From sequence record PV173775: a DNA stretch of 64,000 nucleotides; one strand, written 5' to 3'. The stretch comes from Escherichia phage GEP001. The position numbers and the translations under genes are program-made. The notes below the pieces were generated by a model that was not told the DNA's origin, made no database searches, and saw only the letters and a program-made list of their open reading frames with translations. Positions 2,682 through 46,901 of the stretch are shown here, one piece after another; the first letter of the stretch is position 1; the number at the start of each line of letters is the position of its first letter.

Positions 2682-2865
2682 TCCTAAAAACAAAGCGGAA
2701 ATTATTCGTCAATGGGAACGCATTTGCCGTACTAAATGCCCAATTAATAGTCCACATGATGTAGATAAAGACTATATTGGAACATTCGTTGAATATACCT
2801 TTATTGATAGGAAAGGTCGTAAACAACATGTAGAAGAATATTGCTTAAAGGTTACATGGTTATGA
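2653..2865 (+). CDS. hypothetical protein (70 aa)
   Basis: ATG with GTGGTGGA upstream; overlaps end of macro gene; same-strand operon. Confidence 0.5.
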   Translation: MKAHYPHPFDPKNKAEIIRQWERICRTKCPINSPHDVDKDYIGTFVEYTFIDRKGRKQHVEEYCLKVTWL

Positions 2866-7519: not shown

Positions 7520-8529
7520 TGAAAACAGTAATGAAAAGCTATTTTGGTAGTCATCTTTATGGAACTTCTACTCCAGAATCTGATGTAGATTTTAAAGAAA
7601 TTTTTGTTCCTCCTGCTCGCGATATTCTTATCGGAAATGTTAAAGAGCATATGAGTAAAAACACTAACAACACATCATCTAAAAACACTAAAGATGATAT
7701 TGACCATGAACTATACAGTCTTAAGTATTTCTTTAAATTAGCAGCAGATGGTGAAACTGTAGCATTGGATATGCTTCACACTCCACCTGAACTAGTAGTT
7801 AAATCTGATTTGCCTGATGTATGGAAGTTTATTCAAGACAATCGTTCTCGTTTTTATACGACTAACATGAAATCCTATTTAGGATATGTTCGCAAGCAAG
7901 CTTCTAAATATGGTGTCAAGGGTTCTCGTTTGGCCGCATTGCGTGATGTATTGAAAGTAGTTAATCAAATCCCTGAGCAATGGGTCGATTACCAAGAAGA
8001 CGGTTCCATTAAGCAGCGTCGAACTAAAGTTGAAGATATTAAGCATCGTCTTCCAGAGAACGAATTCTGTGAATGGGTATTCCATAATCATGAGAAAACA
8101 GGCCCACAAACGTTCTACACTGTGTTGGGCCGTAAATATCAGACAACGCTTTCTCTTATCGAGCTTAAGCAGTCACTGAACAAATTAGATGCTGAATACG
8201 GCGAACGCGCTCGTAAGGCTGAAGCGAATGAGGGCATTGACTGGAAAGCTCTAAGTCATGCTTGTCGTGGCGGACTCCAACTATTGGAAATTTACAAAAC
8301 TGGTGACTTAGTCTATCCACTTCAAGACGCTCCATTTATTCTCGACGTGAAGTTGGGTAAACATCCATTTAAAACTGTTCAAGAGCTTTTGGAAGATGTG
8401 GTCGATCAAGTAGAAGCAGCATCTATTGAAGCTTCTAAGAATGGTATGCAACAAAAAGTAGACATGGGTTTCTGGGATGACTTCCTTGAGAGGGTTTATC
8501 TTGAAAACCATCGAAGTTATTATAAATGA
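7516..8529 (+). CDS. Pol-beta-superfamily nucleotidyltransferase-like protein
   Basis: N-terminal GS-x9-DVD motif (FGSHLYGTSTPESDVDF); 337 aa; ATGA overlap with upstream gene. Confidence 0.55.
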   Translation: MMKTVMKSYFGSHLYGTSTPESDVDFKEIFVPPARDILIGNVKEHMSKNTNNTSSKNTKDDIDHELYSLKYFFKLAADGETVALDMLHTPPELVVKSDLPDVWKFIQDNRSRFYTTNMKSYLGYVRKQASKYGVKGSRLAALRDVLKVVNQIPEQWVDYQEDGSIKQRRTKVEDIKHRLPENEFCEWVFHNHEKTGPQTFYTVLGRKYQTTLSLIELKQSLNKLDAEYGERARKAEANEGIDWKALSHACRGGLQLLEIYKTGDLVYPLQDAPFILDVKLGKHPFKTVQELLEDVVDQVEAASIEASKNGMQQKVDMGFWDDFLERVYLENHRSYYK

Positions 8530-24214: not shown

Positions 24215-25417
24215 ATGAAAGTATGCATTTTTATGGCTCGAGGTCTTGAAGGTTGTGGTGTAACTAAATTTTCTCTTGAGCAACGTGATTGGTTTATTAA
24301 AAATGGTCATGAAGTAACTTTGGTTTATGCTAAAGATAAATCATTTACTCGTAATTGCGCGCATGATTATAAATCATTTTCAATTCCGGTTTTATTGGCA
24401 AAAGAATACGATAAAACACTTAAGCTGGTAAATGATTGTGATATTCTAGTTATCAATTCAGTTCCTGCTACTTCAGTCGAAGAAGACACTATTAATAACT
24501 ATAAAAAAATTATTGATAACATTAAACCTTCGGTTCGTGTTGTAGTTTATCAGCATGACCATTCTTCTCTTTCTTTGCGCCGAAATTTGGGATTAGAAGA
24601 AACTGTTCGTCGAGCTGATGTTATTTTTAGTCATTCTGATAATGGCGATTTTAATAAAGTTTTGATGAAAGAATGGTATCCGGAAACTGTTTCTCTGTTT
24701 GATGATATTGAAGAAGCACCGACTGTATATAACTTTCAGCCTCCTATGGATATTGCGAAGGTTCGATCAACCTACTGGAAAGATGTTTCTGAAATTAACA
24801 TGAATATCAACCGTTGGATTGGTCGTACTACTACATGGAAAGGCTTTTATCAGATGTTTGATTTTCACGAAAAACATCTTAAACCTGCAGGACTAAGTAC
24901 TATTATGGAAGGTCTGGAACGTTCTCCAGCATTCATTCCTATTAAAGAAAAAGGAATTCCATACGAGTATTATCGTCTTCATCAAGTAGACCAAATTAAA
25001 ATTGCTCCTAATTTGCCAACGCAAATTCTCGACCGTTATGTAAATAGCGAAATGCTTGAACGCATGAGTAAATCCGGATTTGGTTATCAGTTGAGTAAAT
25101 TAGATAAAAAATATTTACAACGTTCTTTAGAATATACTCATCTCGAGCTTGGTGCATGTGGAACAATTCCAGTATTTTGGAAATCTACTGGTGAAAATTT
25201 AAAATTCCGTGTTGATAACACTCCGTTAATTTCTCATGATAGCGGTATCGTTTGGTTTGATGAAAATGACATGGAATCAACATTTGAACGTATTAAAGAA
25301 CTGTCATCTGACCGAGCTCTTTATGACCGCGAACGTGAAAAAGCTTATGAATTTTTGTATCAGCATCAAGATTCAAGCTTCTGCTTTAAAGAACAGTTTG
25401 ACATTATTACAAAATAA
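24215..25417 (+). CDS. agt: DNA alpha-glucosyltransferase
   Basis: 400 aa; near-identical to T4 alpha-gt as recalled; GAGGA SD; MotA-box promoter upstream. Confidence 0.9.
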   Translation: MKVCIFMARGLEGCGVTKFSLEQRDWFIKNGHEVTLVYAKDKSFTRNCAHDYKSFSIPVLLAKEYDKTLKLVNDCDILVINSVPATSVEEDTINNYKKIIDNIKPSVRVVVYQHDHSSLSLRRNLGLEETVRRADVIFSHSDNGDFNKVLMKEWYPETVSLFDDIEEAPTVYNFQPPMDIAKVRSTYWKDVSEINMNINRWIGRTTTWKGFYQMFDFHEKHLKPAGLSTIMEGLERSPAFIPIKEKGIPYEYYRLHQVDQIKIAPNLPTQILDRYVNSEMLERMSKSGFGYQLSKLDKKYLQRSLEYTHLELGACGTIPVFWKSTGENLKFRVDNTPLISHDSGIVWFDENDMESTFERIKELSSDRALYDREREKAYEFLYQHQDSSFCFKEQFDIITK

Positions 25418-25456: not shown

Positions 25457-25597
25457 ATGATATTTCTTGGATATGTGATACTTTTTCTAGCGTTTTATCT
25501 ATTCACTAGAGCATGTTGGATTGGGTTCTTTAGCACTCCAGATGGATTTATTTCAATAATTTTATTTTGCATTTCAATGACGGTTCTTGATATATGA
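25457..25597 (+). CDS. small hydrophobic membrane peptide (46 aa)
   Basis: GGAG SD 9 nt upstream; two hydrophobic stretches; ATGA overlap with downstream gene. Confidence 0.4.
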   Translation: MIFLGYVILFLAFYLFTRACWIGFFSTPDGFISIILFCISMTVLDI

Positions 25598-26142
25598 AAA
25601 AATATATAACTTATTTAACAATATATAGTGGAGATAAACTTCCTCCTTTTTATATTGGATCTACATCTTTAGACAGGCATTTAGCCGGATATCATGGATC
25701 AGTTTTATCTAAAAAGTATAAGAAAATTTATAATGAAGAACTTTCAAATAACCCACATTTATTTGATTCATGCATTTTAGATGAATTTGATACGCGCGAA
25801 GAAGCTATTAAATGCGAACTATATTATCAACGTTTGCATGATGCGGTTAAAAATCCATTATTCTTTAATATGTCATATGCTGCTCCAAAAGGTTCATTTG
25901 GAAGAGATATTAAAGGACAAAATCATCCATTATATGGTTCTCATAATTGTAAAGGAAACATACATTCACATGACCCATTAACAGGAAAATCTGCCTTTTT
26001 ACCGTATATTCCAGAAGGTTATGTAAAAGGAAGGTCAAATAAATTTAAAGCTTCATCACATAATAAAGGTAAAAAATGGTATAATAACGGAGTTAAGCAA
26101 ATGTTATGTCATGAACCTCCTGGTCCTGAATGGACAAAATGA
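25594..26142 (+). CDS. GIY-YIG-like nuclease domain protein (possible Seg-type homing endonuclease)
   Basis: N-terminal ...IYSG-x8-YIGST...R... resembling GIY-YIG; segments similar to I-TevI-like (DSCILDEF); 182 aa. Confidence 0.5.
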   Translation: MKKYITYLTIYSGDKLPPFYIGSTSLDRHLAGYHGSVLSKKYKKIYNEELSNNPHLFDSCILDEFDTREEAIKCELYYQRLHDAVKNPLFFNMSYAAPKGSFGRDIKGQNHPLYGSHNCKGNIHSHDPLTGKSAFLPYIPEGYVKGRSNKFKASSHNKGKKWYNNGVKQMLCHEPPGPEWTK

Positions 26143-32749: not shown

Positions 32750-35446
32750 ATGAAAGAATTTTATATCTCTATCGAAACAGTCGGAAATAATATTGTTGAA
32801 CGTTATATTGATGAAAATGGAAAGGAACGTACTCGTGAAGTAGAATATCTTCCGACTATGTTTAGGCATTGTAAGGAAGAGTCAAAATACAAAGACATTT
32901 ATGGTAAAAATTGCGCTCCTCAAAAATTTCCATCAATGAAAGATGCACGAGACTGGATGAAACGAATGGAAGATATCGGTCTCGAAGCTCTCGGTATGAA
33001 CGATTTTAAACTCGCTTATATCAGTGATACATATGGTTCAGAAATTGTTTATGACCGAAAATTTGTTCGTGTAGCTAACTGTGACATTGAGGTTACTGGT
33101 GATAAATTTCCTGACCCAATGAAAGCAGAATATGAAATTGATGCTATCACTCATTATGATTCAATTGACGACCGTTTTTACGTCTTTGATTTGTTGAATT
33201 CAATGTACGGTTCAGTATCAAAATGGGATGCAAAGTTAGCTGCTAAGCTTGACTGTGAAGGTGGTGATGAAGTTCCTCAGGAAATTCTTGACCGAGTAAT
33301 TTATATGCCATTCGATAATGAGCGTGATATGCTCATGGAATATATTAATCTCTGGGAACAGAAACGACCTGCTATTTTTACCGGTTGGAATATTGAGGGA
33401 TTTGACGTTCCGTATATCATGAATCGCGTTAAAATGGTTCTCGGTGAACGTAGTATGAAACGCTTCTCTCCAATCGGTCGAGTAAAATCTAAACTAATTC
33501 AAAATATGTACGGTAGCAAAGAAATTTATTCTATTGATGGCGTATCTATTCTTGATTATTTAGATTTGTACAAGAAATTCGCATTTACTAATTTGCCATC
33601 ATTCTCTTTGGAATCAGTTGCTCAACATGAAACCAAAAAAGGTAAATTGCCGTACGATGGTCCTATTAATAAACTTCGTGAGACTAATCATCAACGATAC
33701 ATTAGTTATAACATTATTGACGTAGAATCAGTTCAAGCAATTGATAAAATTCGTGGGTTTATCGATCTAGTTTTAAGTATGTCTTATTATGCTAAAATGC
33801 CTTTTTCTGGCGTAATGAGTCCTATTAAAACTTGGGATGCTATTATTTTTAACTCATTGAAAGGTGAACATAAGGTTATTCCTCAACAAGGTTCGCACGT
33901 TAAACAAAGTTTTCCAGGTGCATTTGTGTTTGAACCTAAAGCGATTGCCCGTCGATACATTATGAGTTTTGACTTGACGTCTTTGTATCCTAGCATTATT
34001 CGTCAGGTTAACATTAGTCCTGAGACTATTCGTGGACAGTTTAAAGTTCATCCAATTCATGAATATATCGCAGGAACAGCTCCTAAACCAAGTGATGAGT
34101 ATTCATGTTCTCCGAATGGATGGATGTATGATAAGCATCAAGAAGGTATCATTCCAAAGGAAATCGCTAAAGTATTTTTCCAACGTAAAGATTGGAAAAA
34201 GAAAATGTTCGCTGAAGAAATGAATGCCGAAGCTATTAAAAAGATTATTATGAAAGGTGCAGGGTCTTGTTCAACTAAACCGGAAGTTGAACGATATGTT
34301 AAGTTCAATGATGATTTCTTAAATGAATTATCGAATTACACCGAATCTGTTCTTAATAGTCTGATCGAAGAATGTGAAAAAGCAGCTACACTTGCTAACA
34401 CAAATCAGCTGAACCGTAAAATTCTTATTAACAGTCTTTATGGTGCTCTTGGCAATATTCATTTCCGTTACTATGATTTGCGAAATGCTACTGCTATCAC
34501 AATTTTTGGTCAAGTTGGTATTCAGTGGATTGCTCGTAAAATTAATGAATACCTGAATAAAGTATGTGGAACTGATGGTGAAGATTTCATTGCAGCAGGT
34601 GATACTGATTCGGTATATGTCTGTGTAGATAAAGTTATTGAAAAAGTAGGTCTTGACCGCTTTAAAGAACAAAATGATTTAGTTGAATTCATGAATCAGT
34701 TTGGTAAGAAAAAGATGGAACCTATGATTGATGTTGCATATCGTGAGTTATGTGATTATATGAATAACCGCGAGCATCTGATGCATATGGACCGTGAAGC
34801 TATTTCTTGCCCTCCACTTGGTTCAAAGGGTGTTGGTGGATTTTGGAAAGCGAAAAAACGTTATGCTCTAAACGTTTATGATATGGAAGATAAGCGATTT
34901 GCCGAACCGCATCTAAAAATCATGGGTATGGAAACTCAACAAAGTTCAACACCAAAAGCAGTACAAGAAGCTCTCGAAGAAAGTATTCGTCGTATTCTTC
35001 AGGAAGGCGAAGAGTCTGTCCAAGAATACTACAAGAACTTTGAGAAAGAATATCGTCAACTTGACTATAAAGTTATTGCTGAAGTAAAAACTGCGAATGA
35101 TATAGCGAAATATGATGATAAAGGTTGGCCAGGATTTAAATGCCCGTTCCACATTCGCGGTGTGCTAACTTATCGTCGAGCTGTTAGTGGTTTAGGTGTA
35201 GCTCCAATTTTGGATGGAAATAAGGTAATGGTTCTTCCATTACGTGAGGGAAATCCATTTGGTGATAAGTGCATTGCTTGGCCGTCGGGTACGGAACTTC
35301 CAAAAGAAATTCGTTCTGATGTACTGTCTTGGATTGACTACTCAACTTTGTTCCAAAAATCGTTTGTTAAACCGCTTGCGGGTATGTGTGAATCGGCAGG
35401 TATGGACTATGAGGAAAAAGCTTCGTTAGACTTCCTGTTTGGCTGA
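32750..35446 (+). CDS. 43: DNA polymerase gp43 (family B)
   Basis: 898 aa; exonuclease and polymerase motifs (DxE, YGDTDS); matches T4 gp43. Confidence 0.95.
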   Translation: MKEFYISIETVGNNIVERYIDENGKERTREVEYLPTMFRHCKEESKYKDIYGKNCAPQKFPSMKDARDWMKRMEDIGLEALGMNDFKLAYISDTYGSEIVYDRKFVRVANCDIEVTGDKFPDPMKAEYEIDAITHYDSIDDRFYVFDLLNSMYGSVSKWDAKLAAKLDCEGGDEVPQEILDRVIYMPFDNERDMLMEYINLWEQKRPAIFTGWNIEGFDVPYIMNRVKMVLGERSMKRFSPIGRVKSKLIQNMYGSKEIYSIDGVSILDYLDLYKKFAFTNLPSFSLESVAQHETKKGKLPYDGPINKLRETNHQRYISYNIIDVESVQAIDKIRGFIDLVLSMSYYAKMPFSGVMSPIKTWDAIIFNSLKGEHKVIPQQGSHVKQSFPGAFVFEPKAIARRYIMSFDLTSLYPSIIRQVNISPETIRGQFKVHPIHEYIAGTAPKPSDEYSCSPNGWMYDKHQEGIIPKEIAKVFFQRKDWKKKMFAEEMNAEAIKKIIMKGAGSCSTKPEVERYVKFNDDFLNELSNYTESVLNSLIEECEKAATLANTNQLNRKILINSLYGALGNIHFRYYDLRNATAITIFGQVGIQWIARKINEYLNKVCGTDGEDFIAAGDTDSVYVCVDKVIEKVGLDRFKEQNDLVEFMNQFGKKKMEPMIDVAYRELCDYMNNREHLMHMDREAISCPPLGSKGVGGFWKAKKRYALNVYDMEDKRFAEPHLKIMGMETQQSSTPKAVQEALEESIRRILQEGEESVQEYYKNFEKEYRQLDYKVIAEVKTANDIAKYDDKGWPGFKCPFHIRGVLTYRRAVSGLGVAPILDGNKVMVLPLREGNPFGDKCIAWPSGTELPKEIRSDVLSWIDYSTLFQKSFVKPLAGMCESAGMDYEEKASLDFLFG

Positions 35447-36015: not shown

Positions 36016-36267
36016 ATGGAAACTTTAGTAGCAGGTTCAATTTTTATGGTTTTAGTTTCAGGCGTGTTGGCTATTATTATATACATGCTTCCATGGTTCA
36101 TCGCCTTGATGCGTGGGTCAAAATCGACAGTAGGAATCTTTTTCACATCTTTACTGTTTAACTGGTCAATTATTGGTTGGTTTATTACATTTATTTGGTC
36201 AATTGCGGGTGAAACTAAAAAATCTGCACAGCAAAACCAAGTAATTATCATCAGAGAGAAGGAATGA
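36016..36267 (+). CDS. imm: superinfection immunity membrane protein Imm
   Basis: 83 aa, two transmembrane helices; matches T4 Imm in size and position next to 43/42. Confidence 0.75.
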   Translation: METLVAGSIFMVLVSGVLAIIIYMLPWFIALMRGSKSTVGIFFTSLLFNWSIIGWFITFIWSIAGETKKSAQQNQVIIIREKE

Positions 36268-36413
36268 AAAGCAAAATTATAGCAGTGTTGCTTTTAATCT
36301 TGATGATTATAATAAGTATATACTATAGTGTAACGGTTCCTCTTATGATTCCAACGCTTATTATAGGGTGGAGTTTATTACTGTTACAAGTTAAATATGA
36401 ATGTATCAATTGA
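36264..36413 (+). CDS. small hydrophobic membrane peptide (49 aa)
   Basis: ATGA overlap with imm; two hydrophobic segments; ends 8 nt before gene 42. Confidence 0.4.
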   Translation: MKSKIIAVLLLILMIIISIYYSVTVPLMIPTLIIGWSLLLLQVKYECIN

Positions 36414-36420
36414 GGTTTAA

Positions 36421-37161
36421 ATGATTAATGACTCTATGACAGTTGAAGAAATCCGTCTTCATTTGGGAATTGCATTAAAGGAAAAAGATTTCGTAATTGA
36501 TAAAACCGGTGTTAAAACTATTGAAATTATTGGTGCATCATTTGTAGCAGATGAACCTTTTATTTTTGGCGCTCTTAATGATGAATACATTCAGCGTGAA
36601 CTTGAATGGTATAAGTCTCAAAGTTTGTTTGTTAAAGATATTCCAGGTGAAACGCCGAAGATTTGGCAGCAGGTAGCATCTTCTAAAGGCGAAATTAACT
36701 CGAATTATGGTTGGGCCATCTGGTCAGAAGATAACTATGCCCAGTATGATATGTGTTTAGCTGAACTTGGTCAAAATCCTGATTCTCGCCGCGGTATCAT
36801 GATTTATACTCGTCCATCCATGCAGTTTGACTACAATAAAGATGGCATGTCAGATTTCATGTGTACGAATACAGTGCAGTACCTGATTCGTGATAAGAAA
36901 GTCAATGCAGTGGTTAACATGCGTTCAAATGACGTGGTCTTCGGATTCCGTAATGATTATGCATGGCAAAAATACGTACTAGATAAATTAGTATCTGATT
37001 TGAATGCAGGTGATTCAACTCGTCAGTATAAAGCAGGTTCCATTATATGGAATGTCGGGAGCCTTCATGTGTATTCCCGTCATTTTTATTTGGTTGACCA
37101 TTGGTGGAAAACTGGCGAAACTCATATTGCGAAAAAAGATTATAACGGTGAGTGGAAATGA
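36421..37161 (+). CDS. 42: dCMP hydroxymethylase gp42
   Basis: 246 aa; thymidylate-synthase-like fold motifs; matches T4 gp42. Confidence 0.9.
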   Translation: MINDSMTVEEIRLHLGIALKEKDFVIDKTGVKTIEIIGASFVADEPFIFGALNDEYIQRELEWYKSQSLFVKDIPGETPKIWQQVASSKGEINSNYGWAIWSEDNYAQYDMCLAELGQNPDSRRGIMIYTRPSMQFDYNKDGMSDFMCTNTVQYLIRDKKVNAVVNMRSNDVVFGFRNDYAWQKYVLDKLVSDLNAGDSTRQYKAGSIIWNVGSLHVYSRHFYLVDHWWKTGETHIAKKDYNGEWK

Positions 37162-38000
37162 TTCAATTCGTAATTCCAAGCTATCAACGCGTAGGGGCAG
37201 TTTCTGCCCTTGATATGTTTCCGACTGATTATGAACCTCATATTGTAGTACGTGAACACGAAGAAAAAGCTTATTATGACGCTTACGGGTCTAGAGCTAA
37301 AATTATAACTATTCCTGATGATGTTAATGGAATTGCTGGTACTCGTAAAGCAATTACTGATATGTATGCAGGTCAACGAATCTGGATGATTGATGATGAT
37401 ACTACTATTCGTATGAGTTCAATGCGAAAGAAAGATGATCGTCGCTGCGTAGATAAAATTAATCAATTAACCCGTGAACAGTTCTATGAATTGATTCAAT
37501 ACGTGGAAGATGCCATGGATTGCGGGTATTATCATGGTCATGCTCGTTTACCAATTTTTAAAATTACTTCATCTTGGGGTAATTATCGTGAAAATTCATA
37601 TGGATTCACGAATACCTGGTATGATTTAGGAAAACTTACAACAGAACAAATTGGGTATGGAAAAATTGATTTATGCGAAGATATGTATGCATTTCTCAAT
37701 TTAATTAATCAAGGTTATCCGCATTTGGCCTTGTTCAAATATCTGGTTGTATCTGGAAAAGCACAAGCTCCTGGCGGGTGCAGTTCAATTCGTAGTAATT
37801 CTAAACATAATAGAGCGCTTGAGCAAATCAATAGAGAGTTTCCAGAGCAAGCTCGTTGGAAAACTTCTAATATTGAAAAACGAAAATCGTTGGGTGAAGA
37901 AGACGAGCCATTAAAGGTTCTTCGCATGTGTGTTTCGCGCAAAGAAAAGTCAGAAGCATTTCATAAGTTTAATGCTATTCATCCAATAGCAGTTGATTAA
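37158..38000 (+). CDS. GT-A-type glycosyltransferase (candidate beta-glucosyl-HMC-alpha-glucosyltransferase)
   Basis: N-terminal IPSYQR and downstream DDD (DxD) motif; occupies the beta-gt slot between 42 and uvsX; ATGA overlap with 42. Confidence 0.55.
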   Translation: MIQFVIPSYQRVGAVSALDMFPTDYEPHIVVREHEEKAYYDAYGSRAKIITIPDDVNGIAGTRKAITDMYAGQRIWMIDDDTTIRMSSMRKKDDRRCVDKINQLTREQFYELIQYVEDAMDCGYYHGHARLPIFKITSSWGNYRENSYGFTNTWYDLGKLTTEQIGYGKIDLCEDMYAFLNLINQGYPHLALFKYLVVSGKAQAPGGCSSIRSNSKHNRALEQINREFPEQARWKTSNIEKRKSLGEEDEPLKVLRMCVSRKEKSEAFHKFNAIHPIAVD

Positions 38001-38077
38001 TGCCTAAATTTATTGTGTTATAATTACTCTATCTTTAACCAGTGAGGAAAATATAATGATGCCTATGGAAAAAATGA

Positions 38078-39259
38078 ATGTCTATTGCAGATTTAAAATC
38101 CCGTTTGATTAAAGCTTCCACTTCTAAAATGACTGCTGAACTGACTACATCTAAATTCTTTAATGAAAAGGATGTAATCCGTACAAAAATCCCAATGCTT
38201 AATATCGCTATTTCTGGTGCGATTGATGGTGGTATGCAGTCTGGTTTAACCATTTTTGCAGGTCCTTCTAAACACTTTAAATCAAATATGTCTTTGACTA
38301 TGGTTGCGGCGTATTTGAACAAATATCCTGACGCAGTTTGTCTATTCTATGATAGCGAATTTGGTATTACTCCAGCTTATTTGCGATCCATGGGAGTTGA
38401 CCCGGAACGAGTAATTCATACACCAATCCAGTCAGTTGAACAACTGAAAATTGATATGGTGAATCAGCTTGAAGCTATTGAGCGTGGTGAAAAGGTTATT
38501 GTATTCATCGACTCAATCGGTAATATGGCTTCTAAGAAAGAAACGGAAGATGCCTTGAATGAAAAATCTGTGGCAGATATGACTCGTGCTAAATCACTGA
38601 AGTCATTATTCCGTATTGTTACTCCTTATTTTAGTATTAAAAACATTCCATGTGTTGCGGTTAACCATACAATTGAAACAATTGAAATGTTTAGTAAAAC
38701 CGTGATGACAGGTGGTACAGGCGTAATGTATTCGGCTGATACTGTATTCATTATCGGTAAACGTCAGATTAAAGATGGTTCTGATCTTCAGGGGTATCAA
38801 TTTGTTCTAAATGTAGAAAAATCTCGTACTGTCAAAGAAAAAAGTAAATTCTTTATTGATGTTAAATTTGACGGTGGTATCGATCCTTATTCTGGATTGT
38901 TAGATATGGCTCTTGAATTAGGATTTGTGGTAAAACCTAAAAATGGCTGGTATGCTCGTGAATTTCTTGACGAAGAAACCGGCGAGATGATTCGCGAAGA
39001 AAAATCTTGGCGTGCAAAAGATACCAATTGCACTACATTCTGGGGTCCTTTATTTAAACATCAGCCATTCCGAGATGCTATTAAACGTGCTTATCAGTTA
39101 GGTGCTATTGATAGCAATGAAATTGTTGAAGCTGAAGTTGATGAATTGATTAACTCAAAGGTTGAAAAATTTAAATCTCCAGAAAGTAAAAGTAAATCAG
39201 TAGCTGATTTAGAAACTGACCTAGATCAGTTAAGTGATATGGAAGAATTTAATGAATAA
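38078..39259 (+). CDS. uvsX: recombinase UvsX (RecA-like)
   Basis: 393 aa; Walker A GPSKHFKS; matches T4 UvsX. Confidence 0.95.
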   Translation: MSIADLKSRLIKASTSKMTAELTTSKFFNEKDVIRTKIPMLNIAISGAIDGGMQSGLTIFAGPSKHFKSNMSLTMVAAYLNKYPDAVCLFYDSEFGITPAYLRSMGVDPERVIHTPIQSVEQLKIDMVNQLEAIERGEKVIVFIDSIGNMASKKETEDALNEKSVADMTRAKSLKSLFRIVTPYFSIKNIPCVAVNHTIETIEMFSKTVMTGGTGVMYSADTVFIIGKRQIKDGSDLQGYQFVLNVEKSRTVKEKSKFFIDVKFDGGIDPYSGLLDMALELGFVVKPKNGWYAREFLDEETGEMIREEKSWRAKDTNCTTFWGPLFKHQPFRDAIKRAYQLGAIDSNEIVEAEVDELINSKVEKFKSPESKSKSVADLETDLDQLSDMEEFNE

Positions 39260-46382: not shown

Positions 46383-46901
46383 ATGGCATACTTTAATGAA
46401 TGTTCACAACTGATCGAAGGCGCTGATAAAGCTCAAAATGAATACTGGGATATTCTCGGTGATGAAAAAGACCCGCTGCAGGTTATGCTTGATATGCAGA
46501 AATCTTTGCAGGTTCGTTTAGCTAAAGATAAACCTGAATATAACCGTCATCCTGATGATTTGGCTACTGCAGGTGAAGTTGTTGATTGGCTGCGTAATCA
46601 GAAAGATTATATTGACGATGAATTCCGTGAACTTCTAACTTCTCTTGGCGGTATGAGTAATGGCGAAAAAGATGCATCTGCTGTATGGAAGCCTTGGAAA
46701 GCTCAACATGGTGAACGCCGTGAAACTCTAATTACTGATTTGTCTCCACAAGACCAGTTGGAAATTAAATTCGAAATGATTGATATTCTTCATTTCGTTT
46801 TGAACATGTTCCAAGGTCTTGGTCTTACGGCTGAAGAAATCTTTAAACTTTATTATCTGAAAAATGCTGAAAACTTCGCTCGTCAAGACCGAGGTTATTA
46901 A
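46383..46901 (+). CDS. 56: dCTPase/dCTP pyrophosphatase gp56
   Basis: 172 aa from ATG 46383 (AAAGGA SD); MazG-like; matches T4 gp56. Confidence 0.9.
   Translation: MAYFNECSQLIEGADKAQNEYWDILGDEKDPLQVMLDMQKSLQVRLAKDKPEYNRHPDDLATAGEVVDWLRNQKDYIDDEFRELLTSLGGMSNGEKDASAVWKPWKAQHGERRETLITDLSPQDQLEIKFEMIDILHFVLNMFQGLGLTAEEIFKLYYLKNAENFARQDRGY

Follow-up and report, generated by a model that had tools for sequence, protein, structure and literature searches.

The locus between gene 42 and uvsX in T-even phages raises the question of which enzyme occupies the place that T4 gives to its DNA beta-glucosyltransferase gene (b-gt), and what that enzyme does to the phage DNA. In this study, we examined the locus in Escherichia phage GEP001, using a 64,000-nucleotide stretch of record PV173775 that we refer to as the window. 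A sequence-only reading had proposed that the open reading frame (ORF) at this position encodes a GT-A-type glycosyltransferase and that, together with alpha-gt, gene 42, and gene 56, it implies a pattern of DNA hypermodification different from that of T4, possibly with a second sugar added to glucosyl-HMC. We found that the ORF is the classical ba-gt gene of T2 and T6 (ggt, or TAGT gene), which is already known and ordinary for T-even phages. We put at roughly 95% the probability that its product is a T2/T6-type beta-glucosyl-HMC-alpha-glucosyltransferase that adds a second glucose to make alpha-gentiobiosyl-hmC.

The gene lies exactly where the sequence-only reading had placed it, as a plus-strand ORF between gene 42 and uvsX (Table 1). 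Its ATG at 37158 overlaps the TGA of gene 42 in an ATGA (37158..37161) and is preceded 7 to 12 nt upstream by the Shine-Dalgarno-like sequence GGTGAG, and a start/stop overlap of this kind with an upstream Shine-Dalgarno-like sequence is a typical arrangement for translational coupling. An in-frame GTG at 37152, two codons upstream, offers an alternative start. The protein begins with MIQFVIPSYQR and carries IWMIDDDTTI further inside. Between 36200 and 38300, a promoter scan returned 13 promoter-like sites, no excess over the 9.2 ± 3.3 obtained in shuffles, and a terminator scan returned 1 terminator-like site against 0.9 expected by chance. The terminator scan, at this chance rate, picked up a hairpin at 37192..37212 in the 5' coding region of ba-gt, right after codon 11, with a 9-bp stem (TAGGGGCAG TTT CTGCCCTTG) that is kept in T2 and T6. 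Upstream of gene 42, a 49-aa hydrophobic ORF (36264..36413) fills the gap before the gene and has an ATGA-type overlap with the end of imm; the matching 150-nt gap carries no annotation in the T6 and T2 records viewed.

Table 1. Positions in the window of ba-gt, its motifs, and the neighboring and modification-pathway genes
Feature	Coordinates	Strand	Basis or remark
alpha-gt, DNA alpha-glucosyltransferase (GT-B)	24215..25417	+	PF11440 AGT, 5.2e-236
DNA polymerase (43)	32750..35446		Upstream of gene 42
Gene 42, dCMP hydroxymethylase	36421..37161	+	Pfam Thymidylat_synt, 6e-16; near-identical to T6 gp42
ba-gt (ggt / TAGT gene), beta-glucosyl-HMC-alpha-glucosyltransferase	37158..38000, stop codon included	+	280 aa
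IPSYQR, residues 6-11	37173..37190	+	End of strand beta1 (E3-7 in model) and following loop
DDD, residues 79-81 (GATGATGAT)	37392..37400	+	DXD motif after strand 74-78 in model
E174-D175, candidate 'xED'-type catalytic base of an inverting GT-A enzyme	37677..37682	+	Inferred from GT2
PGGCSSIR, residues 205-212, family-specific motif	37770..37793	+	49-member alignment
uvsX	38078..39259	+	Pfam T4_UVSX_C, 5e-39, and RecA
Gene 56, dCTPase/dUTPase	46383..46898	+	tblastn with T6 gp56, 71.5% over 172 aa, E = 1.3e-82

The identity of the gene follows from its relatives. Megablast of positions 37000..38100 matched 544 phage records, 451 of these at 95-99% identity, and the matches are mostly Escherichia, Shigella, or Yersinia Tequatrovirus, in many of which the gene is annotated as beta-glucosyl-HMC-alpha-glucosyltransferase. 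With the protein as the query, tblastn found 689 records (177 at ≥99% identity), with proteins 100% identical to that of the window in pSs-1, KFS-EC3, and ZCEC15, a 64-66% tier of Klebsiella, Enterobacter, and Citrobacter T4-like phages, and a 47% tier of Serratia phages. The comparison with the T2 and T6 enzymes that the earlier reading had called for gave the same answer: direct alignment over 280 aa showed 98% identity to T6 (AP018814) and 99% to T2 (AP018813, whose protein is the same as that encoded by T2 record MH751506), with few and conservative substitutions such as K92R and I101V. The T2 and T6 proteins (ggt, g-gt; PF20691, PHROG 842) have the same length of 280 aa, the predicted GT-A fold, and the IPSYQR and DDD motifs in common with that of the window; the maps of both phages read 42 - ggt - uvsX, as in the window, and the partners alpha-gt, gp42, and gp56 are also alike. 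PHROG 842, 'beta-glucosyl-HMC-alpha-glucosyltransferase,' matches residues 1-275 at 5.6e-89. In the Pfam scan the sole match was PF20691 TAGT (TET-associated glycosyltransferase), at 38.8 bits against a gathering cutoff of 27.5 (E = 1.2e-9) and with residues 3-207 aligned to profile positions 2-205 of 205, and neither a GT2 model nor PF09198 was hit; NCBIfam holds no model for the TAGT family. The best match in a 25-kb comparison was Escherichia phage ECO07P2, at 97.8% identity and 97% query coverage, and these sequence comparisons assign the window phage to Tequatrovirus, close to many sequenced isolates.

T4 b-gt (PF09198, GT-B) resembles ba-gt in its slot downstream of gene 42, its UDP-glucose donor (from the literature), the beta linkage, and its service in DNA hypermodification. 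However, the two enzymes differ in their acceptor, which is the hydroxymethyl group of hmC for T4 b-gt and the glucose of alpha-glucosyl-hmC for ba-gt, and in their ancestry. BLASTP of the ba-gt protein against T4 beta-gt (NP_049658) gave no similarity (best E = 3.4), and we rejected the idea of a diverged beta-gt; tblastn of T4 beta-gt against the whole 64-kb window gave nothing better than E = 1.4. The position that T4 uses for beta-gt is thus held by a different gene, as had been proposed, and by sequence comparison ba-gt is a nonhomologous replacement rather than a variant. T4 additionally has the homing endonuclease gene segA between b-gt and uvsX; the window does not have it there, and tblastn of T4 segA against the whole 64-kb window gave no match. 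T4-type beta-gt occurs in 126 phage records versus about 685 for ba-gt, and T4 is the odd one out at this locus. Beta-gt is absent from the 64-kb window, and one elsewhere in the genome would be nonsyntenic.

A PDB sequence search found no solved relative of ba-gt (best E = 0.76, from spurious RRM matches), and the fold was therefore taken from prediction. The AlphaFold2 model has a mean pLDDT of 93.3 and a pTM of 0.91, without any low-confidence segment, and superposes on solved GT-A enzymes as a single Rossmann-like alpha/beta/alpha domain. Foldseek with this model retrieved WrtF, AvpGT, K4CP, TarP, and TarS, with E values down to 7.6e-7. These structural matches are largely inverting GT2-like enzymes, which fits a beta-1,6 linkage made from UDP-alpha-glucose. 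The model thus supports the proposed GT-A fold, unlike the GT-B fold of T4 beta-gt, and describes ba-gt as a predicted small soluble GT-A (GT2-like) glycosyltransferase that, by analogy, is probably metal ion dependent. The cellular GT2-type GT-A enzymes (TarP and TarS of Staphylococcus aureus, the chondroitin polymerase of E. coli K4, WrtF, AvpGT, and SpsA) share only 8-16% identity with ba-gt and transfer to polysaccharide, teichoic acid, or lipid-linked glycan, whereas the acceptor of ba-gt is a sugar on duplex DNA. The ba-gt family is set apart from these cellular enzymes by a PGGC(S)xxR motif and by a C-terminal stretch of 70 residues, both of them family specific.

We collected 52 TAGT family members, and 49 of them are covered by the alignment and the conservation counts. 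The IPSYQR and DDD motifs are present as the sequence-only reading had described them, and they are conserved beyond chance in the aligned sequences: R11, R63, and D79-D80-D81 are invariant (49/49), and I6 (47/49), P7 (46/49), and Y9 (42/49) vary little. Y39 and R212 are nearly invariant (46/49 for R212). IPSYQR occupies the position of the N-terminal nucleotide-sugar-binding motif of GT-A/GT2-like enzymes. From this analogy we infer that the beta1 loop, with R11, and the DDD motif bind UDP-glucose and the metal ion. The E174-D175 pair would similarly be the supplier of the catalytic base; D175 is found in 43 of the 49 sequences, and position 174 is E, T, or S. Within PGGCSSIR, P205 is kept in 37, G206 and G207 in 43, and C208 in 40 of the 49 sequences, and we would guess at a role in acceptor or phosphate binding. 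Since no experimental structure was found for any TAGT member, the catalytic-residue assignments are analogies.

The companions on which the earlier proposal depended, alpha-gt, gene 42, and gene 56, are all present in the window. The genes are ordered 43 - imm.1 - imm - 42 - ba-gt - uvsX - 40 - 41, which is the T-even order in reverse reading, and the alpha-gt of the window is 91% identical to that of T6. Two features of these genes stand on their own. Gene 56 is only 71.5% identical to T6 gp56, whereas neighboring replication and modification genes are at 91-98%, and by sequence its segment appears locally divergent and mosaic. Directly downstream of alpha-gt, a 182-aa ORF (25594..26142) has an N terminus (YIGST...) that resembles the GIY-YIG homing-endonuclease motif and may be a putative mobile seg-like insertion.

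With these genes, a T2/T6-type pathway can be laid out. The gp56 enzyme would exclude unmodified C and, along with gp42, provide hydroxymethyl-dCTP instead of dCTP, so that 5-hmC would enter the phage DNA by replication. The GT-B enzyme alpha-gt would then transfer glucose from UDP-glucose onto hmC in alpha linkage, creating the acceptor for ba-gt, which would add the glucose of a second UDP-glucose to the 6-OH of the first with inversion, giving the beta-1,6-linked disaccharide of alpha-gentiobiosyl-hmC. The expected DNA would be a T2/T6-type mix of hmC, alpha-glucosyl-hmC, and gentiobiosyl-hmC, without beta-glucosyl-hmC. The window directly gives the identity of the gene, its synteny, fold, and motif conservation, the presence of the companions, and the absence of beta-gt; the product chemistry comes from published work on orthologues that are nearly identical. 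Gentiobiosyl-hmC is the described product of the T2 and T6 enzymes (PMC13216743, citing Lehman & Pratt 1960, Kornberg et al. 1961, and Kuno & Lehman 1962), and T2/T6-type phages are without beta-glucosyl-hmC (PMC13390438, PMC13216743). In new Tequatrovirus isolates that have alpha-gt and TAGT but lack beta-gt, HPLC/MS showed hmdC, alpha-glucosyl-mdC, and alpha-gentiobiosyl-mdC in a ratio of about 1:2:2, and the authors of that work noted that TAGT is syntenic with T4 beta-GT (PMC13390438). The second sugar on glucosyl-HMC that had been suggested as a possibility is thus supported by 98-99% identity to enzymes of described chemistry and is established knowledge.

The shared locus with T4 beta-gt, and the beta linkage expected of an apparently inverting-type GT-A enzyme, could also be taken to mean that ba-gt acts straight on hmC, placing the first sugar in beta linkage and substituting for T4 beta-gt; solitary TAGT homologues in some phages without alpha-gt or beta-gt (PMC13216743) point the same way. 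We consider this highly improbable, given that the orthologues of T2 and T6 yield gentiobiosyl-hmC in phages without beta-glucosyl-hmC and that DNA of T6(delta g-gt), reported to carry ~75% alpha-glucosyl-hmC where wild-type T6 has ~72% gentiobiosyl-hmC (bioRxiv 10.64898/2026.02.25.707755), has the same ~25% unglucosylated fraction as the wild type. From this unchanged fraction, naked hmC does not seem to be a substrate of g-gt. An enzyme with another donor or acceptor, be it another sugar or a non-DNA substrate, and with chemistry unlike that of T2 and T6 might be imagined from the diversity of the TAGT family, whose more remote members (20-30% identity) are found in different settings, among them the TET/JBP-associated ones to which the Pfam name of the family refers. 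The near identity to the characterized T2/T6 enzymes and the identical synteny make a change of specificity very unlikely, and we rate this explanation lower still. The preferred reading remains that ba-gt adds a second glucose to alpha-glucosyl-hmC.

How much of the DNA would carry the second glucose is a separate matter. Di-glucosylated hmC amounts to ~5% in T2, ~72% in T6, and ~40% in Durham isolates (PMC13390438; bioRxiv 10.64898/2026.02.25.707755). The T2 gene is 99% identical to that of the window and yet yields only ~5% gentiobiosyl-hmC, so the presence of the gene is no guarantee of extensive di-glucosylation, and the di-glucosylated fraction in the window phage, which we can only infer, is beyond what sequence alone gives. 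The gene could accordingly be a weak hypomorph, as in T2, leaving the DNA essentially mono-alpha-glucosylated. We regard this as unlikely: the window keeps the family-invariant Arg11, whereas all T2 records have His11; hundreds of independent isolates encode an identical or nearly identical protein, a pattern suggestive of purifying selection; and natural isolates with alpha-gt and TAGT have about 2 parts in 5 of gentiobiosyl-mdC (PMC13390438).

Residue 11 offers a possible account of the difference between T2 and T6, for which the cited literature gives no cause. Codon 11 of the window (37188..37190) is CGC, encoding the Arg that is shared with T6 and with every one of the 49 aligned sequences, and its T2 equivalent is CAT (His, in SYQH). 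A 30-mer with the CAT codon occurs in 8 of 50,697 GenBank phage records, namely, seven named T2 and SV76; SV76 is near-identical to T2, with a record as long as that of T2 AP018813, and besides it R11H is confined to T2 records in this collection. The corresponding 30-mer with the CGC codon of the window occurs in 110 GenBank phage records. Exact-pattern scans of IMG/VR found the Arg11 codon context in 3 contigs and that of His11 in 0, too few to be useful. R11H, which probably affects the site that binds the nucleotide sugar, may plausibly account for the low di-glucosylation of T2, and by the same reasoning the Arg11 of the window phage would lead one to expect substantial di-glucosylation. 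The joint reading, in which the window phage is heavily gentiobiosylated like T6 and R11H lies behind the ~5% of T2 versus the ~72% of T6, is tentative, and we hold it to be possible but rather doubtful.

Several public records of this locus call for care. In T6 record MH550421, a TAG amber occupies codon 10 of ba-gt (7924..7980, minus strand), and the CDS is annotated from Met20 with 261 aa; in T6 record AP018814, the GATGATGAT run is shortened in frame by 3 nt (around 2735..2745, minus strand), which turns DDD into DD. The window gene has neither lesion. The differing lesions of the two T6 records may be laboratory-stock mutations or sequencing errors, and published analyses that took the T6 TAGT from RefSeq may have used the truncated protein. 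Names are also crossed: the T4-type GT-B b-gt of RB55 and RB59 (KM607002/KM607003) is labeled 'beta-glucosyl-HMC-alpha-glucosyl-transferase,' the GT-A TAGT gene is named 'b-gt' in T2 records LC348380 and NC_054931, and ba-gt is called 'hypothetical protein' in many other phage records.

Descriptions of the enzyme activity date from the early 1960s, and the GT-A fold and the nonhomologous replacement of beta-gt were published in 2026. Our results leave the current understanding unchanged. For the window phage, annotation of ba-gt means that T2/T6-type gentiobiosyl-hmC is to be expected rather than the alpha/beta mono-glucosyl mix of T4. The expected modification would alter the range of host nucleases and glycosylases able to act on the DNA, and it bears on the restriction, glycosylase, and CRISPR defenses that the phage escapes and on the behavior of its DNA with restriction enzymes and in sequencing. 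If the reading of R11H is true, residue 11 would allow the DNA modification state of hundreds of Tequatrovirus isolates to be predicted simply from sequence, and with it their sensitivity to Brig1, BapA, or GmrSD-type defenses.
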